A stretch of 64,000 nucleotides of DNA from Octopus sinensis (taxonomy: Eukaryota). The DNA lies in NCBI RefSeq assembly GCF_006345805.1, contig NC_043020.1, positions 25,234,001 through 25,298,000 on the forward strand, given 5' to 3'. The notes beneath the pieces are model-generated. The model ran no database searches. It saw only the letters and a list, made by a program, of their open reading frames with translations, and was not told the origin of the DNA. Positions 616-60,056 of this stretch are shown in pieces (within the stretch, counting starts at the first letter, position 1; every line of letters begins with the position of its first letter). A program made the position numbers and the translations under genes.

Positions 616-1080
616 GTAAAAAGTGAAAAAACTACAGAAGGCTTGTTTTAAAAGTTAAAAAATATATATTTGAGTCAATATGTCTGAAGAATGTTATCAA
701 TTTTTCTTACAATGACATAGTTTAGAAGAAATGACCGGTTTCGCGTCAGCTTTTCAAATTCCTTACACATCGTTATGTTTATGTTGGAGAGAGTTATCGT
801 TATGTTATGTTGAAGAGAGTTCCAAATAAGGGGAGGTAATAAGTGATTTCTTCCGGTGTAAGGGAGATAATCGCTTAAGTTTTTGTCTTTCCTTTGGAGT
901 GAATTTCTCTGTATAAGTATGTTGGAATGGTTAAGTCTGGGCTTGTACTTTTCATCTATGTCGTTGTAAGAAAAAAATTGATAACATTCTTCAGATATAT
1001 TGACTCAAATATATATTTTTTAACCTTTTAAAACAAGCCTTCTGTAGTTTTTTCACTTTTTACTATTTTCTATATATTCA
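611..1080 (-). mobile_element. Penelope-like element 3' end / pseudo-LTR with a short inverted copy
   Basis: 611-715 is the reverse complement of about 962-1075. The minus strand near 925-960 reads ..DEKYKPRLN, like the PLE ORF end IKKFRPSLN at 56.8 kb. Contains an HHR at 727-763 and is flanked by (TA)n. Confidence 0.65.
727..763 (-). ncRNA. Minimal type I hammerhead ribozyme, U3-A8 core variant
   Basis: Minus strand: AGGAAU UUGAAAA GC UGAC GC GAAAC CG GUC AUUUCU. Stem I 6 bp, stem II 2 bp, palindromic stem III ACCGGU, GUC cleavage triplet. Confidence 0.7.
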
Positions 1081-3020: not shown

Positions 3021-3680
3021 GAAGCGACACCTACTGGCTGGCTACGCTGCATTGAAAAGGGGCAATACTCCGAAACGCGTCTGTAGCTGCCGGTCAAGTA
3101 GTGTGGAGCGACTGACCTCCTTGTTCGAAGGTTATATGGATACAGTTTGTGTATCAAATAGCTAAATTAAGGCGATGGCTCATGGAGCTAATAAGCGGAC
3201 AGCTTTTTTCTTATTTTTATAAGAATGCCATATTAGTATGGCGATAACTATTATTTCCGGGAACGCTGCCGCTGTTCTCTTTTAGAGAGACTTAGTTATT
3301 TTAATATTCTATTATTGAAAACAAGTGGATGTATTCCACCGAAACTAGGTAAATAAAACCATCGAACAGAGATGTCGGAAGCGACACCTACTGGCTGGCT
3401 ACGCTGCATTGAAAAGGGGCAATACTCCGAAACGCGTTGTAGCTGCCGGTCAAGTAGTGTGTGCAGCGACTGACCTCCTTGTTCGAAGGTTATATGGATA
3501 CGTTTGTGTATTCAAATAGCTAACTTAAGGCGATGGCCTCATGGAGCTAATAAGCGGACAGCTATTTTCTTCTTTTTATAAGAATGCCATATTAGTATGG
3601 CGATAACTATTATTTTCCGGGAACGCTGCCGCTGTTCTCTTTTAGAGAGACTTAGTTGTATTTTAATACTGATATTATAT
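3021..3680 (+). repeat. About 1.8 units (period about 357 bp) of the HHR-containing retrozyme-like repeat
   Basis: Same sequence as the 49989-51463 units. HHR motifs at 3046-3087 and 3403-3443. Ends in (TA)n. Confidence 0.9.
3046..3087 (+). ncRNA. Type I hammerhead ribozyme, U3-A8 variant
   Basis: GCUGCA UUGAAAA GGGG CAAUA CUCC GAAAC GC GUC UGUAGC. Confidence 0.8.
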
Positions 3681-4732: not shown

Positions 4733-4782
4733 GGTCTTACAGCTGTTTCCAGGATACTTCTTATATCCCTTCATCGGAGACG
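4733..4782 (-). ncRNA. Minimal type I hammerhead motif (U4C, probably decayed) in a PLE terminal remnant
   Basis: Minus strand: GUCU CCGAUGA A GGGAUA UAAGAAG UAUCCU G GAAAC AGCU GUA AGAC. Confidence 0.65.

Positions 4783-13212: not shown

Positions 13213-13219
<7 letters not shown>
13132..13219. repeat. Inverted repeat (arms about 35-40 bp)
   Basis: TAGTGAAGGGAAGAA..GCCGAACGAAGATTCTACAA / TTGTAGAATCTTCGTTCGGCTTCTTCCCTTCACTA. Confidence 0.85.
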
Positions 13220-13246
<27 letters not shown>

Positions 13247-13248
<2 letters not shown>

Positions 13249-13875
13249 TAATAATATAGGGTGAAATTAATTAATTTGGAATAATCATTAATTTCACCAA
13301 GTAGATTTCGGCATGTAAAAGCCTCATTCGAGGAAAGTTTAAGTAATACTAAGTAATTAAGGGTTTAGCAACGATTTGCCTCACCACACACCGAAATTTA
13401 GAAATAGCAGTCAAAGAGTTATAGCTATTCTTTCTACTAAAAGGGAGATCTCAGTAAAACCACAGGACTTGAAAGGCAAACACAGACAGGCAAGAGAGGA
13501 AGAAATGACGGCAATCTATCATACAATTTTAAGTCACCTACGGACGTACGTTTCGAAATTAAGTTTTAGGAAAGCATAAGAATTAGATAATTATGTCTTA
13601 CCCAACTTCTTTTCTCATCAGCGTAGGACACTACAATTATGAATAATTGTATATTAAATTTCGAGGTACTAGAAGGCATCATCTCAACTCAGTATCAGAG
13701 CGAGCTAAAGCCGTTACCAGTATCACCAAATTCAAAGTGTGAATGAAAGTTTGTGTCACCAACCCCTTCCCACCAGCGTGTAGCCAAGACAAGATGTTGT
13801 GGTCATTTACTGGGATGAAATATGGTTATCAGTAATAATATAGGGTGAAATTAATTAATTTGGAATAATCATTAA
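13247..13875 (-). mobile_element. PLE pseudo-LTR-like non-coding unit with partial tandem terminal repeat and HHR
   Basis: AGTAATAATATAGGGTGAAATTAATTAATTTGGAATAATCATTAAT repeated at about 13247 and 13831. HHR at 13537-13627. Abuts (TA)n. Related to the element at 17355-17880. Confidence 0.65.
13537..13627 (-). ncRNA. Canonical type I hammerhead ribozyme with long stem II
   Basis: Minus strand: CCUACG CUGAUGA GAAA [about 50 nt] UUUC GAAAC GUAC GUC CGUAGG. Perfect 6-bp stem I; palindromic stem III ACGUACGU. Confidence 0.85.
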
Positions 13876-13890
13876 TTATGAACTTGTAGG

Positions 13891-22185: not shown

Positions 22186-23185
22186 TGTTTCTTTATTAGC
22201 CACACAGATTACAAAGTAGAGCTTTTCTTTATGGGGAGAATAAAAAAGGGGGGTAGGTTTTCGATCAGAAGGGATCGTAAAAAGGAAAGAAAAAAAGAAA
22301 AAAAAGCAAGAAAAGAAAAAACAGAAAAGAAAAAATGATTAATAGGAATCGTGTATCACAGAAATGTCATGATGTAAAGTGTAAAGGGGGAAGCAGATAG
22401 GGTTTATCCGTGGAAAGAAAAGCCTACTGAAAAGACCACGGTAACCTCGGTCAATAATGTCACATGTTAACACATTTGTTTGCAAGTAGGTAACCCTCTG
22501 TTTTAAATTTTTCCGGGTTCATAGGATTTGCTCAACGTGGTTTCGTCATTCAAACGTGCCATCCTTGCTACATTCACCCATCTTTTTTTTAAACATTCGC
22601 TAGACAAAACTTGCCTCTCTACTCTCACTTTCCCTTTCAGGTGATACTTGAAGATGAGGGATTGACCAGAGAGGAAAGTGTTTGTCTCCAATCCTTTCAG
22701 ACGCGTCCACCAAATACATTCTTTCGCCATAGCCACAAGAATGATGAAAATAGCTCTTCCTTCCCGTTTGAAGGAAGAAGGCGTGACAATATTGACGATA
22801 GACTCGGCTGATAAACCGACTCGTCCCACACGTGACAGCAGTCGTTCGACATAATCCCACAGGTCGGAAATTGTTGGACACTGCACGAGTGCGTGCAGAA
22901 CGGTTTCGTTGCTCTGACCGCATCTCAGGCAGGTCGGCACCGTGTTTCTCGAGCTGTGTCTGTAGAGTTTATCCTGAACGGGTAGCGCTTCTCGGTAGCA
23001 CTGCCAGGCCAGGGATCTCTGGAAGTTGTCCATGGGTCCTGGCCCGAAAGTCGTCCTGAACAGGCGGGTCAGGTATTCCTCGTCGACGTCCAGGTTCGCC
23101 CCGAGCTCGTCGTCGTACCTTCCCTCCACTAATCCCCTATAGAATGCTCAAGGTCGATCCGGGACGGCATAGTTGCTTGAGAGCG
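22186..23185 (-). mobile_element. 5'-truncated Tx1/L1-clade LINE flanked by (GATA)n
   Basis: ORF 22503-23129 has WQCYREALPV..CLRCGQSNETVLHALVQC (zf-RVT). Near-identical to 58750-60057. Confidence 0.9.
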
Positions 23186-28599: not shown

Positions 28600-29160
28600 T
28601 CAAGAGGAGGGGGCTGTGTTAAGTCCGTGTGGGGTAGTAGTTTGTAGGGTGAAGATGTAGCGTTGCTCCAAGTGGAGCCTGGAAAGTGGGCGACCATTGT
28701 GGGGGGCGAGACCAAACACTGAGATGTCATCTAGGGAATGGCCGGCCGAGCGAAAGTGGCGTGCGACGGGAGAAAATGAGTGTAGGCGAACGTCCCTCAA
28801 ATGTTCTGTGAATCGGTCGGACAACCGGCGTCCCGTCTGTCCTACATACAGCATCCCGCATAGGTTGCATTTAATGCAGTAAATAAGGCCAGACGAGGTG
28901 CACGTAAAAGAGTGCCTAATGCGTACAGTATGCCGGTTGGAGCCGGTGACAGCGGTGGTGTTGGTGATGAAGGGGCAAGTGTTGCAGCGGGATCTAGAGC
29001 AAGGGAATGATCCGTGTGGGGATGAGGGGGAAGGAGAGAGGGTGCTGTGGACCAGGAGGTCACGCAGATTGTGGGCTCGTTTGAAGGAGGACAGGGGTGG
29101 GTTAGGGAAAATGGGGCGGGTGGTGGGATCAAGCTGGAGGCGACGGAAGGCACGTAGTAT
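28600..29160 (-). pseudogene. Penelope-like element C-terminal CCHH linker + GIY-YIG endonuclease
   Basis: NLRDLLVHS, CSRSRCNTC, FTCTSSGLIYCIKCNLCGMLYVGQTGRRLSDRFTEH, VARHF, RLHLEQRYIFTLQT..PHGLN. Confidence 0.9.
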
Positions 29161-29179
29161 CATATATATACATATATAG

Positions 29180-29322
29180 GACGGGCTTCTTTCAGTTTCT
29201 GTCTATGTGATTCACTCACAAGACTTCAAGACTTTTGCCTTTTGGTGCCATGCAGTAGGACTGAACTTGGAACACTGTGGTTGGGAAGCAAGATTCTTAC
29301 CCTACAGCCACGCCTGCACCTC
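29180..29322 (-). mobile_element. SINE family A fragment
   Basis: ACGGGCTTCTTTCAGTTTC...CTTACCCTACAGCCACGCCTGCACCT. Confidence 0.8.
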
Positions 29323-30534: not shown

Positions 30535-31082
30535 GGCCAGCATATTAAAAAATACCTTTAACGGTTAAATTTATAAACAATTCATAAATGAGGGCAAAGG
30601 AAAAAAATTCTAATGCCAAATATGCCGAAAAATTGGACATATTGTCCATTAACCATATAATTTTTTTCACAATACGCACGCTACTCGAAAAAAGGTCGAC
30701 AGAAATTTCTAAAAAATTCCATTATTACCATATCGGGCCGATTTCAGAGTTAGCTACTAAGAGCCCTCTCTTCATCAGTGATACATGTGGCAAAAGAAAT
30801 AAATGAGATACTTACTCACACCCATGGAAGAAGTCATGGGCACAACTACATCCAAATACATCCAAAATAGAAATACTCCAGCCCATTCGAGGCACGTGCG
30901 ATTTATATATGTATAACTCTGAAATCGGCCCGATATGGTAATAATGGAATTTTTTAGAAATTTCTGTCGACCTTTTTTCGAGTAGCGTGCGTATTGTGAA
31001 AAAATTATATGGTTAATGGACAATATGTCCAATTTTTCGGCATATTTGGCATTAGAATCTTTTTCCTTTGCCCTCATTTATG

Positions 31083-31087
<5 letters not shown>
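30535..31087. mobile_element. PLE pseudo-LTR pair in inverted orientation
   Basis: About 30578-30751 is the reverse complement of about 30915-31087. Complete HHR on the minus arm. (TA)n tracts lie on both sides. Confidence 0.75.
30726..30783 (-). ncRNA. Canonical type I hammerhead ribozyme
   Basis: Minus strand: UAUCA CUGAUGA AGAG AGGGCUC UUAG UAG CUAA CUCU GAAAUCG GCC CGAUA UGGUA. Confidence 0.8.
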
Positions 31088-31124
<37 letters not shown>

Positions 31125-36169: not shown

Positions 36170-36898
36170 ATTAATAGTTATCGCCATACTAATATGGCAG
36201 TCTAAATATAAGACTAAAGCTGTCGCTGATTAGCTCCAAGAGGCCACCGCCTCTAGCTAGCTATATGACACACGAACCTGCGTCCATTATAAACCTTCGA
36301 ACAGGGGAGGTCAGCCGCTTCACCTTGCTAGTCAGACATCTGCAGATATGTGTCAGGGTTGTTGCCCTTTATCAATGCAGCGTAGTCAGAACCAGCAGGT
36401 GTCGCTACTGACGTCTGTTCGAAGGTTTTATTTACCTAATTACAGTGGAATATTATTAGTATGGCGATAACAATTAATATCCAGTAACGCTGGATATTAA
36501 TCTCCTTTAGAGAGACTTAGTAATTTTAATATTTCTATTATTGAAAACAAGTGGATGTATTCCACTGTAACTAGGTAAATAAAATCTTCGAACAGATGGT
36601 CAGTAGCGACACCTGCTGGTACTGACTACGCTGCATTGATAAAGGGCAACAACCCTGAAACATGTCTGCATATGTCTGACTAGTAAAGGTGAAGCGGCTA
36701 ACCTCCCCTGTTCGAAGGTTTATAATGGACGCAGGTTCGTGTGTCATATAGCTAGCTAGAGGCGGTGGCCTCTTGGAGCTAATCAGCGACAGCTTTAGTC
36801 TTATATTTTGACTGCCATATTAGTATGGCGATAACTATTATATCCAGTAACGCTGCCGTAATCTCCTTAGAGAGACTTAGTAATTTTAATATTTCTAT

Positions 36899-44962: not shown

Positions 44963-45094
44963 TCCTCTGACGAGGCCTTTGGTTATTTAAATATACAAAT
45001 ATAATCTTTAATGCCTAGGACTATATTACAATGGCATCTATGGGCAATTTAAGTTGAATTGACTCTTGACCATAGGCTGAAACAGCTGTAAGGA
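44963..45094 (+). ncRNA. Canonical type I hammerhead ribozyme with about 100-nt stem II
   Basis: UCCU CUGACGA GGCCUUUGGUUA ... UGACCAUAGGCU GAAAC AGCU GUA AGGA. Confidence 0.85.
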
Positions 45095-49803: not shown

Positions 49804-50104
49804 AGTATGTATGTATGTATGTATATGTCTGAGTTTTTCCCCCCAACATCACTTGATAACCGATGCTGGTGTGTTTACGTCCCTGTAACTTAGTTCGGCA
49901 AAAGAGTCTATAGAATAAGTACTAGGCTTACAATGAAATTAGTCATGGCGTCGATTTACTCGACTAAAGGCGGCGCTCCAACATAGTTACTTAGTAATTT
50001 TAATATTTCTATTATTGAAAACAAGTGGATGTATTCCACCGAAGCTAGGTAAATAAAACCTTTCAACAGAGATTGTCAGAAGCGACACCTACTGGTCTGG
50101 CTAC

Positions 50105-50146
50105 GCTGCATTGAAAAGGGGCAATACCCCGAAACGCGTCTGTAGC
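50105..50146 (+). ncRNA. Type I hammerhead ribozyme (U3-A8), copy 1
   Basis: GCUGCA UUGAAAA GGGG CAAUA CCCC GAAAC GC GUC^UGUAGC; predicted cut after 50140. Confidence 0.85.
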
Positions 50147-50466
50147 TGCCGGCCAAGTAGTGTGGAGCCACTGACCTCCCTTGTTCAAAGGTTATATGGA
50201 TACAGTTTGTGTATCAAATAGCTAACTTAAGGCGATGGCCTCATGGAGCTAATAAGCGGTCAGCTTTATTCTTATTTTTATAAGAATGCCATATTAGTAT
50301 GGCGATAACTAATATTTTCCGGAACGCTGCCGTTGTTCTCTTTTAGAGAGACTTAGTAATTTTAATATTTCTATTCTTGAAAACAAGTGGATGTATTCCA
50401 CCGAAGCTAGGTAAATAAAACCTTTGAACAGAGATTGTCAGAAGCGACACCTACTAGTCTGGCTAC

Positions 50467-50508
50467 GCTGCATTGAAAAGGGGCAATACCCCGAAACGCG
50501 TCTGTAGC
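50467..50508 (+). ncRNA. Type I hammerhead ribozyme (U3-A8), copy 2
   Basis: Identical motif; predicted cut after 50502. Confidence 0.85.
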
Positions 50509-50829
50509 TGCCGGCCAAGTAGTGTGGAGCCACTGGCCTCCCTTGTTCAAAGGTTATATGGATACAGTTTGTGTATCAAATAGCTAACTTAAGGCGATGG
50601 CCTCATGGAGCTAATAAGCGGTCAGCTTTATTCTTATTTTTATAAGAATGCCATATTAGTATGGCGATAACTAATATTTTCCGGGAACGCTGCCGTTGTT
50701 CTCTTTTAGAGAGACTTAGTAATTTTAATATTTCTATTCTTGAAAACAAGTGGATGTATTCCACCGAAGCTAGGTAAATAAAACCTTTGAACAGAGATTG
50801 TCAGAAGCGACACCTACTAGTCTGGCTAC

Positions 50830-50871
50830 GCTGCATTGAAAAGGGGCAATACCCCGAAACGCGTCTGTAGC
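50830..50871 (+). ncRNA. Type I hammerhead ribozyme (U3-A8), copy 3
   Basis: Identical motif; predicted cut after 50865. Confidence 0.85.
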
Positions 50872-51192
50872 TGCCGGCCAAGTAGTGTGGAGCGACTGAC
50901 CTCCCTTGTTCAAAGGTTATATGGATACAGTTTGTGTATCAAATAGCTAACTTAAGGCGATGGCCTCATGGAGCTACTAAGCGGTCGGCTTTATTCTTAT
51001 TTTTATAAGAATGCCATATTAGTATGGCGATAACTAATATTTTCCGGGAACGCTGCCGTTGTTCTCTTTTAGAGAGACTTAGTAATTTTAATATTTCTAT
51101 TCTTGAAAACAAGTGGATGTATTCCACCGAAGCTAGGTAAATAAAACCTTTGAACAGAGATTGTCAGAAGCGACACCTACTAGTCTGGCTAC

Positions 51193-51234
51193 GCTGCATT
51201 GAAAAGGGGCAATACCCCGAAACGCGTCTGTAGC
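51193..51234 (+). ncRNA. Type I hammerhead ribozyme (U3-A8), copy 4
   Basis: Identical motif; predicted cut after 51228. Confidence 0.85.
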
Positions 51235-51459
51235 TGCCGGCCAAGTAGTGTGGAGCGACTGACCTCCCTTGTTCAAGGTTATATGGATACAGTTTGTGTA
51301 TCAAATAGCTAACTTAAGGCGATGGCCTCATGGAGCTACTAAGCGGTCGGCTTTATCCTTATTTTTATAAGAATGCCATATTAGTATGGCGATAACTAAT
51401 ATTTTCCGGGAACGCTGCCGTTGTTCTCTTTAAGAGAGACTTAGTAATTTTAATATTTC

Positions 51460-51508
<49 letters not shown>

Positions 51509-54552: not shown

Positions 54553-55269
54553 GGTATTAACAGGGGTACGGTTTGCGCTGTTGTTGTTAGTGGTGGCGGC
54601 GGTAGTAGTGGTGGAAGTGGTGGTAGTGGTGGTGGCACTAATGTTGTCATTTAGAGCCAGATTAAATGATTAAATACATTCCACCACCACCACAAGGTTA
54701 TCTTAGGGCTCTAGTTTGTCGCTCGGCTAAAGATAAACTTAGTTATCACTGGTTTCAGTTACATCAAGGGTCTGCCTTCACCTGGGCCTTGCTGGATTAA
54801 ACGGTCACCTTTGGATTACCAAGAGATTCAGAAATGCTAGACTCAGCTGCCTTAAAGGAACCTCGCTACATTTGGAGATTTGATAATGGCTATTGACCCT
54901 TGATTGAGTTCAGATATTTTTGGTGGTAGACTCCCCCCCAACCAAGGTGGGACTTTATATTGGGTTGCTAGTGTAATCGTCGCCGGCACAACCAAGAAAC
55001 AAGGAATTATTGGTTTACGTAATTCACCTGTAGCTTGGAAAACATATTTTAATAAGATGGCTGGAAGTGAATGGCAGGAATGATGGCTGCTAGTGCTAGT
55101 AGGTCAAATGACCACAAAGAATACATTCTTGTTCGATGGTGCTGGATGTAGTTTTAGTTTTTCTGTCTTGTCCAAAGAGTGATGACTAAAGAATTAGGTG
55201 CGAACGGTTTTCATTCTTAGCTCCTTCACGCAACAAATTCTACCTTGTTTTGCACACATATGCTAACCT

Positions 55270-56886
55270 GTACGTATGTATGCATACTCATCAAAATCCC
55301 TTCACCAAATGATCTTAAACTAAGACCGATAATAGCAGGGCCAGCATGTGAAACTCACCGCCTCAGCAATTTCTTAGACACACTGCTTAAACCTTTCCTA
55401 AAACACATCAAAAGCTACGTAAGAGACGATATAGATATGCTGAACCACCTCCCTAAAACAGTCAATGAGAAAACCCTTCTAGTATCATTCGACGTAGTTA
55501 ATCTTTATTCTAACATCCCTCACAACCTAGGAATAGAAGCGATCACCTTCTGGCTGAATAACTACCCCTTTGAACTCCCAACTCGCATAAACAAAGACCT
55601 TATATAGAAGGACTTAGATTCATTTTAGAGAACAATTATTTTATTTTTGACAATGATTTCTACAGACAAAGATCGGGAACAGCGATGGGCACGCGTACTG
55701 CACCATCTTTTGCCAACCTAGTGATGGGATACCTCGAGAAAATACTATACCGGATAACACTCGAGAAATATGGAAACACCTTCGCCACCTATATCCATAA
55801 CAACTGGAAAAGATACCTCGATGACTGTTTCATCATCTGGGACAAAGGTATAGAGAAACTTGAGGAATTTAAAATACTATTAAATGGAATAAATGACAAT
55901 ATACAATTCACGATGGACCACAACGAAAAAGATTACCATTTTTAGACATCCTCATTAAGAAAACCGGCAACAAAATAGAGACAGATATCTACTATAAACC
56001 GACAGACTCTAAACAGTACCTACCCTTTGATTCATGCCACCCACGACACACTAGAATGAATGTTCCTTTTTGTTTAGCTAGAAGGATTTGCACCATAATA
56101 TCAGACACAAACACCCGACACACACGTCTCCAGGAACTTAGAACTACACTCACAAATAGAAACTATCCACAGCCCCTAATATACAGTGCAATCCAACGGG
56201 TACTTAAATTAAGTATAGAAGACCTGAGACAAACAAAACTAAAAAAGAAAGAACAATTAAAAACCCTTCCCTACATCTCTACACACAACACACTCAACAA
56301 TGAGGCCTTCAACACCATACTACAAAGCACAGCCCTACTAAAGGGAGACCCAAAGATGAACCGGATCCTCGAAACACACACCATCATTAAAAGTAAACGG
56401 CAACCAAAATCCTTGAAAAGGATTTTAACCCAAGCTACACTGCACTCAACATCAACCACAAAACCAGCAGTTAGAAAATGTGGAAGGCCCAACTGCGGAA
56501 TCTGTGTCATCTTGAAAGAAGGATCAGAATTTATACTGGAACAAAGCCACCAGTTCACCATTAGAACAAACTTCACCTTCGCATCAGAAAACTTAATTTA
56601 CGTCATAACATGCGCAGGCTGCAATAGGCAGTATATAGGCCATACAAAAAATAGCTTACGTAACAGGATGGCGGTGCATAAATCACAAATTAGAAACCCT
56701 GATTACCGCAAAATACCGGTCAGCGGACACATAGATAGATGTGCTGGAAATGTAAATCCGAAATTTACAACTAACCCGCTCTATAAATTCAGTGACAACG
56801 CAACCTTCACACAACGCCAAAATAAAGAACTGTATTTCATAAAAAAATTTAGACCAAGTTTAAACACCCTGGGCCAGGAATATTAA
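55270..56886 (+). pseudogene. PLE reverse transcriptase / GIY-YIG polyprotein (disrupted)
   Basis: ORFs 55245-55607, 55685-55945 and 56056-56886 joined across frameshifts. Confidence 0.9.
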
Positions 56887-58041: not shown

Positions 58042-58100
58042 TATATAACTTTTTTTGATAAGGTTCATTTCAGGAACTGAAACATGTTATAATGTATATA
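58042..58100 (+). ncRNA. Minimal type I hammerhead (U3-A8) in the PLE pseudo-LTR
   Basis: UUGAUAA GGUUC AUUUCAG GAACU GAAAC AU GUU AUAA; stem I weak and AU-rich. Confidence 0.65.
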
Positions 58101-58750: not shown

Positions 58751-60056
58751 GTTTCTTTATTGGCCACACAGGGCTGCACACAGATGGGACAAGTTACAAG
58801 GTAGAGCTTTTCTTTTGGGGGATGAAAAAAAAAACACAAAAGAAAAAAAAAATAAATAAATAAAATAAAAAATAAAAAGAATAAAAAGAAAAATAGAAAA
58901 AGAAAAGGAACAAAAGAAAAGAGAAATGAAAAAAGAAGAAAAAAGGGGAAAAAAGGGGAAGAGGAAAAAAAAAGAACGATCAATAGGGATCGTGTATCAC
59001 AGTGTTATGATATATGGTGTAAAGGGGAAAGCAAGTAAGGTTTATCCGTGGGAAGAAAAGCCTACGAAAAAGACCACGGTAACCTTGGTCAATATTGTTA
59101 TATGTTACCACATTTGTTTTCAATTTCTGGGTTCATAGGATTATGCTCAAGGTGGCTTCGTCATTCATACGTTCCATCCTTGCTACATTCACCCATCTTT
59201 TTTTAAAACATTCGCTAGACAAAACTTGCCTCTCTACTCTCACTTTTCTTTTCAAGTGGTACTTGAAGAAGTTGATGAGAGATTGACCAGAGAGGAAAGT
59301 GTTTGTCTCCAATCCTTTCAGACACGTCCACCAGATACATTCTTTCGCCATAGCCACAAGGATGATGAAAATAGCTCTTCCTTCCCGTTTGAAAGAAGGA
59401 GGCGTGACAATATTCACGATAGACTCAGCTGATAAACCGACTCGTCCCACACGTGACAGCAGTTGTTCGACACAAGCCCACAGGTCGGAAATTGTTGGAC
59501 ACTGCACGAGTGCGTGCAGAACAGTTTCGTCGCTCTGACCGCATCTCGGGCAGGTCGGCCCCGTGTTTCTCGAGCCGTGTCTGTAGAGCTTATCCCGAAC
59601 GGGTAGCGCTTCTCGGTAACACTGCCAGGCCAGGGATCTCTGGAAGTTGTCCATGGGCCCTGGCCCGAAAGTCGTCCTGAACAGGCGGGTCAGGTACTCC
59701 TCGTCGACGTCCAGGTTCGCCCCGAGCTCGTCGTCGTACCTCCCCTCCACTAATCCCCTATAGAATGCTTTGGTTGTGTTGAAGTCACTCAAGGTCGACC
59801 CAGAACGGCAGAGTTGCTTGAGAGCAACGCGACACTCGCGGTGCCATTCGCCCTTCCTCGGCCTCTTTTTGATCCACGACTGCAGTTCGGTCATGGAGAC
59901 GAACTACGGGAAAGCGTGCCTCACAAACGGCGACCACACCTGTTCACCGTCGTCTACATAGAGCCAGAGATGTCGCAGTCTCAGCGCGTGTCTGCGCATC
60001 ATCAACCACGGCATGCCCAGCCCTCCTTTTAACGGGTGTTGACAGCAAGGTCAACC

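Follow-up and report, generated by a model that had tools for sequence, protein, structure and literature searches.

The question raised by this locus is whether a hammerhead ribozyme with a very short helix III cleaves only when two copies pair with each other, and whether these copies must lie in adjacent units, as an earlier note on the same DNA had proposed. The window analysed is a stretch of 64,000 nucleotides of microsatellite-rich animal DNA, located on one contig (G000:C24) of a 2.72-Gb assembly (G000). Our main reading, to which we give a probability of about 0.65, is that the window holds a young, non-coding, mobile tandem repeat, probably a non-LTR retrozyme that depends on a Penelope-like enzyme for its movement, the hammerhead of which would cut only when two copies pair the palindrome ACGCGU. 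The features of the array and of its relatives in the window are as follows.

49990..51463, + strand, tandem array of four 362-363-bp units and a 24-bp end
50077..50174, + strand, extended helix I arm round hammerhead 1 (predicted fold: a long imperfect rod, with some covariation in two distal helices)
50105..50146, + strand, hammerhead 1 (helix I 5' strand 50105-50110; core UUGAAAA 50111-50117; helix II 50118-50130; GAA 50131-50133; palindrome 50134-50139; C17 50140; helix I 3' strand 50141-50146)
50134..50139, + strand, palindrome ACGCGU, helix III of unit 1
50467..50508, + strand, hammerhead 2 (palindrome 50496-50501, C17 50502)
50830..50871, + strand, hammerhead 3 (palindrome 50859-50864, C17 50865)
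51193..51234, + strand, hammerhead 4 (palindrome 51222-51227, C17 51228)
51403..51463, + strand, family tail of ~61 bp, carried by family insertions at one end only
3021..3650, + strand, same-family copy of two units, 92-95% identical, with the ribozyme at 3052 intact and the second lacking C17
36172..36899, no single strand, older subfamily copy, 79-81% identical to the array unit

The four array units are 98-99% alike, with a GC content of 41%, and are non-coding. No frame of at least 100 amino acids lies within the array, save two frames entering from the flanking (TA)n, and no frame with reverse transcriptase (RT) and GIY-YIG domains, as in an autonomous Penelope-like element, was found there. 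The 5' end of the array is truncated and its 3' end abuts (TA)n. In the older copy, 36172-36452 (- strand) is an inverted 5' copy with a decayed ribozyme, followed by a direct unit with ACAUGU at 36660-36665. Contigs from four runs (of four studies, the run type being guessed) covered 27 of the 30 bins of one unit, a result that is silent on transcription, ends and circles.

Every array unit contains a type I hammerhead, in which helix I (GCUGCA/UGUAGC), the core UUGAAAA and helix II (GGGG-CAAUA-CCCC) are followed by GAA, the palindrome ACGCGU and C17. Thus, three helices surround a conserved core with a 3-8 pair, GAAA and a UH cleavage site, and the ends lie in helix I; the 3-8 pair is U3-A8, replacing C3-G8. 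The helix sizes fit canonical loop 1-loop 2 contacts, and the loops presumably resemble canonical ones. The self-complementary stem III, AC-GC-GU, described in the earlier note was confirmed as ACGCGT in all four units, and the interval given there, 50131..50502, begins at G12 of the first ribozyme and ends at C17 of the second. Rfam covariance models gave no hammerhead match in 49900-51500 at E values up to 10, and none for the whole window among the matches listed (150 of 237); the Rfam microRNA matches were rejected as microsatellite artefacts.

Most metazoan hammerheads have a helix III of 1-2 bp with a palindromic loop of 2-4 nt, and their tandem copies fold as an active dimer, according to PMC4209133 (Cervera and de la Pena 2014). 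The array hammerheads have this form, with a helix III of 1-2 bp and a conserved palindromic loop. ACGCGU can alternatively be drawn as one pair with a palindromic tetraloop, the form of the axolotl hammerhead HHR_Amex1, which as a monomer cleaves to 6% per hour and as a dimer far more efficiently (PMC7229834, Cervera and de la Pena 2020). According to PMC4209133, dimer folding would permit multimers to cleave while leaving monomeric circles uncut, so both dimer cleavage and the idea of a "sensor" of multimers versus monomers are already in print. The same paper reports low activity even for dimers, and the U3-A8 variant; we found no cleavage rates for a U3-A8 core in the open-access literature.

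The A-U and C-G pairs of helix III are fixed by the ribozyme, and 4 of the 16 possible loop dinucleotides are self-complementary and complete a palindromic 6-mer. One palindromic site therefore proves little, and the weight falls on the family. A census of G000, in which exact flanks were required and the loop left free, gave 2,141 matches, compared with 0 for the reversed pattern. The loop was GC in 1,430, AU in 537, pyrimidine-purine in 119 (UA in 99 of the 100 listed) and GU in 29; by subtraction, 16 were AC and 10 all others. Approximately 2,085 of the 2,141 loops (~97%) are thus self-complementary. However, family copies are not independent, and the real evidence is therefore the number of loop switches, about four. 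To count them we used a tree of 72 units with rough supports, for which 124 near-full-length units were kept from 161 anchors (37 being dropped as short or unrelated) and 65 young GC copies were thinned to 13. AU copies occur in several branches. GC copies form a clade, apart from one that sits among AU copies, and a UA clade contains one CG copy. GU loops are found only at tips, in the young GC clade, and five of the seven come from one array. No subfamily with a loop other than GC, AU, UA or CG was seen among the 72 units, CG being one copy. A switch between self-complementary states takes two changes, and the crude chance that four distinct states all fall among the four self-complementary ones is 1 in 1,820, with CG represented by one copy only. 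At two loci (L109, L110), UA-loop units are also arrayed in tandem, the period being longer there (513-567 bp).

Covariation extends to the other helices. Across subfamilies that are 73-84% identical, the letters of the core do not vary, and there is covariation in all three helices. In a set of 21 copies hand-picked across subfamilies, two-sided changes were found in 3 of the 6 pairs of helix I, 3 of the 4 pairs of helix II and 9 of 22 pairs overall; the 100% pairing of the loop in this set reflects the choice of copies. A census of fetched loci with a hammerhead descriptor found 105 of 124 to be palindromic, compared with 1 for a reversed control, and carries no weight because these loci were fetched by palindrome-bearing patterns.

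A generic pattern crossing family boundaries gave 10,894 matches in comparison with 620 for the control, and by hand count 83 of the 100 matches listed have self-complementary loops. Seven of the 100 have GU loops, and we rejected these as a counter-example: the six examined lack helix I after the supposed site, and the usual form of the family behind them is a 4-nt palindrome. The 4-nt-palindrome hammerhead family (L115-L121) is itself very abundant, with 4,311 matches in G000; by hand counts on the 100 matches listed, approximately 61 are intact and 13 are three bases shorter. The shorter form removes the normal cleavage register, and possibly represents a subfamily that spread with a dead ribozyme.

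The earlier note also held that other hammerheads in the window keep palindromes of different sequence. This was borne out, as all six cited sites have the letters given for them in hammerhead-shaped contexts, two of which have decayed. The hammerheads at 36660 and 734-739 (minus strand) pass the hammerhead descriptor, and that at 734-739 is intact. The sites at 13544-13551 and 45082 (44963-45094, + strand) carry 8-nt palindromes. Loss of the core at these two sites was ruled out, because the cores sit beyond long inserts in helix II: by eye, a full core follows an insert of ~60 nt at the former, and the core of the latter stands at 44967 beyond an insert of ~105 nt. The 8-nt palindromes are weaker evidence for dimers, because monomers can form 2 bp with a tetraloop. 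At 4739-4746, this copy has a U4-to-C change and its relatives are intact; a pattern for these relatives, which covers more than one family, gave 1,825 matches versus 2 in the control. The hammerhead at 58082 (58055-58088) has U3-A8 and a decayed helix I. Two further members of the window had been absent from the earlier list: at 3021-3650 a copy of the array family, and at 30778 (30731-30783, - strand) a hammerhead. The latter has a helix III of 4 bp with a 3-nt loop, not a perfect palindrome, and could work as a monomer.

Several observations accompany these sites. The minus-strand hammerhead at 727-764 is flanked by a 93% inverted repeat (602-728 / 948-1077), and a nearby frame (1032-1442) resembles a Penelope endonuclease fragment, with no Pfam match. 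The hammerhead at 30731-30783 lies between inverted repeats (30566-30752 / 30914-31099). A frame at 28600-29202 (- strand) is like a GIY-YIG fragment, again with no Pfam match. A frameshifted Penelope-like RT/GIY-YIG frame at 55221-56886 (+ strand) is located 1.2 kb upstream of the 58082 hammerhead, and another locus (L061) has a Penelope-like frame and a hammerhead in the same order. Two related frames with a zf-RVT match (22503-23147 and 59133-59903, - strand) are likely 3' fragments of a LINE-type element. The site at 13217-13878 (- strand), together with L097-L106, represents a second tandem hammerhead family of ~598 bp, with a helix II of 60-70 nt and an 8-nt palindrome, and with up to four or more units per site and inversions.

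Folding predictions bear on both parts of the question. For a single ribozyme, the predicted pairing probability of A15.1-U16.1 is 0.0, in a model that forbids loops of <3 nt by assumption, and the circular monomer is predicted as a rod with helix III open. For two ribozymes with flanks of ~35 nt, the unconstrained fold is a strand-swapped double hammerhead (-168.3 kcal/mol), which is predicted to be 7.7 kcal/mol more stable than two local folds (-160.6 kcal/mol). With 59 pairs of natural neighbours, the dimer fold was reached by 41 of 41 GC/GC pairs, 6 of 10 mixed GC/GU pairs and the single GU/GU pair not at all; among older-subfamily neighbours, it was reached by 0 of 3 AU/AU and 0 of 4 UA/UA pairs. 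Of 49 choices of transcript ends, 10 placed the dimer fold no more than 1 kcal/mol from the free ensemble, and 12 no more than 3 kcal/mol; in the others it was mostly 6-9 kcal/mol above it. With two full units, the dimer fold was not populated in the model, and with three or four units, the equilibrium fold pairs the first ribozyme with the last and not with its neighbour. These predictions thus show that the dimer is possible in the model; they show neither its preference nor its restriction to neighbours.

Because the model often disfavours the dimer fold, one may consider an explanation in which the monomer already cleaves usefully, through loop 1-loop 2 contacts or with the help of proteins, and the palindrome does no more than make it faster. 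In addition, the sizes of helix I (6 bp) and helix II (4 bp) are canonical by the account in PMC4209133, and most of the invertebrate retrozymes described in PMC7229834, including a mussel repeat of 350-390 bp, are efficient monomers. However, helix III of this monomer can only be one pair with a palindromic tetraloop, the poorly cleaving axolotl type, and the loop of the family has switched only between self-complementary states; we regard this explanation as rather improbable. Dimeric cleavage, on the grounds of these loop switches and of published experiments on equivalent motifs (PMC4209133, PMC7229834), is likely.

The part of the earlier claim that called for two adjacent units fares worse. 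Adjacency is not shown, because the model pairs non-adjacent units in longer arrays, and with two ribozymes the dimer wins in only 10 of the 49 end choices. The partners in dimeric cleavage might instead be any two ribozymes, whether far apart within the same multimer or carried by separate RNAs, and cleavage would then respond to local concentration rather than to tandem units. The pairing of ribozyme 1 with 3 or 4 would fit such a process, as would the -7.5 kcal/mol predicted for the palindrome duplex alone and the many older-subfamily copies with one intact ribozyme per strand. On the other hand, with short flanks the neighbour dimer was the best fold for all 41 young pairs, and sequential transcription should favour neighbours; we therefore consider cleavage without adjacency unlikely.

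The spread of the family can be read from its insertions. A DNA search gave at least 172 matches on many contigs (40 of 981 candidates scored), and most full units are 96-99% alike, a young set of near-identical copies. The anatomy was taken from the top 20 loci, representing 14 sites, all of them best-scoring. A 3' end at unit position 24-27 is common to all 14, with a TA-rich flank in 13. Eleven sites have an inverted copy, and in ten of these the opposite end of the insertion falls at 317-329, ~61 bp earlier. The fixed 3' end is 235 nt downstream of the predicted cleavage site, and copying therefore does not start at an end made by the ribozyme. Divergence between units is 1.2% within arrays and 3.05% between them (85 units from 22 sites; 0 of 2,000 permutations as low), which fits repeated copying of one circle, and also a homogeneous source array or later homogenisation.

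The insertions end away from the cleavage site. This would fit an explanation in which the ribozyme, slow or dead, was inherited from a Penelope terminal repeat as a passenger, while the element spreads through uncleaved read-through RNA and its arrays grow by unequal crossover. The U3-A8 variant of the core would fit as well, as would the local spread of variants in a 20-unit array; in frogs, where retrozymes have been linked to Penelope terminal repeats, only one of nine retrozyme dimers was cleaved in vitro and eight were not (bioRxiv 10.64898/2026.07.22.740005). An invariant core with covarying helices I, II and III is nevertheless not expected of a passenger, and we consider this explanation improbable.

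On the reading that we prefer, the array would be transcribed as a multimer. A lone ribozyme could not close helix III, and two of them would exchange helix I strands and form a shared helix III of 6 bp. The paired ribozymes would cut at two C17 sites and free a unit-length RNA, which would be circularised, the lone ribozyme in the circle staying inactive. A Penelope-like RT/GIY-YIG protein, acting in trans, would nick (TA)n, and copying would begin at the fixed position, 235 nt away from the cut site, and run round the circle to produce arrays of like units. As we propose, self-complementarity would be conserved because the units of one insertion share one haplotype and the partner of each ribozyme is its twin.

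Among known systems, the class that suits the element best is that of the non-LTR retrozymes / non-autonomous Penelope elements, of which it would be a new and young family. Like the animal non-LTR retrozymes defined in PMC7229834, it is a dispersed, multicopy, non-coding tandem repeat with units in the range of 150-450 bp, GC below 45%, one type I hammerhead per unit and a rod-like predicted circle. In contrast to those described there, it has a U3-A8 core; and whereas most invertebrate retrozymes are efficient as monomers, this family looks dimer-dependent. The short palindromic helix III and the dimer model are shared with the hammerheads of Penelope-like elements (PMC4209133; Lunse et al., via PMC6765202); among these, the U3-A8 covariant is found in Schistosoma Cercyon and the 2-nt palindromic loop in Drosophila virilis Penelope (PMC4209133). 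However, the array has no RT/GIY-YIG frame, its helices are of canonical size and not of the minimal motif, and helix I is extended and long. In the double hammerheads of newt satellite 2 and avocado sunblotch viroid (Forster et al. 1988, via PMC4209133 and PMC6155905), two tandem ribozymes share an elongated helix III, and cleavage is proposed in multimers and not in monomeric circles, as for the array; here the host and the sequence differ, and the double fold is only predicted.

As in non-autonomous Penelope derivatives (bioRxiv 10.64898/2026.07.22.740005; Craig et al. 2021, PMC8557442), the best-scoring sites have partial tandems, an inverted 5'-truncated copy, a one-sided tail and a microsatellite target with a (TA)n bias. 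Unlike in the accounts of those derivatives, the tail is ~61 bp instead of 30-40 bp, and a parent Penelope terminal repeat was not found among 134 loci. Coding Penelope-like elements are present in G000, but none of those examined shares sequence with the array unit: searches by tblastn with five Penelope fragments of the window and by blastn with two unit types gave no autonomous partner sharing the unit sequence among 114 + 20 loci. A description of the family was not found in the main texts of the open-access literature.

The dimer mechanism was published as early as 1988, and its application to animal repeats followed in 2014 and 2020, so it will be no surprise to specialists. A stronger version of our reading, to which we give somewhat less than even odds, is that this invertebrate retrozyme family has been active recently and is strictly dimer-gated, although its helix sizes are canonical and its core is U3-A8; that its loop has naturally scanned all four self-complementary dinucleotides; and that its insertions preserve a record of Penelope-type priming, which took place at a single fixed position inside a circular RNA and led on to rolling reverse transcription. 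If true, such priming and rolling copying would be direct genomic evidence for the mobilisation of an animal retrozyme. The insertion ends bear on the question of how non-LTR retrozymes are mobilised, for which the 2026 preprint states that invertebrates were not examined (bioRxiv 10.64898/2026.07.22.740005). Furthermore, the family is a good test system, with young near-identical copies and natural loop variants that serve as compensatory mutants.

In two arrays, L107 (G000:C20:2595500-2603500; 20 units) and L111 (10 units), variant units recur with a higher-order period, which suggests local expansion after insertion. Elsewhere in the assembly, on G000:C1, four loci (L131-L134) contain Penelope-like elements that appear to be young and lie between inverted terminal repeats, the latter carrying U3-A8 hammerheads with a CG loop. 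One of these loci (L132) has a 748-amino-acid frame with RT and weak GIY-YIG matches.
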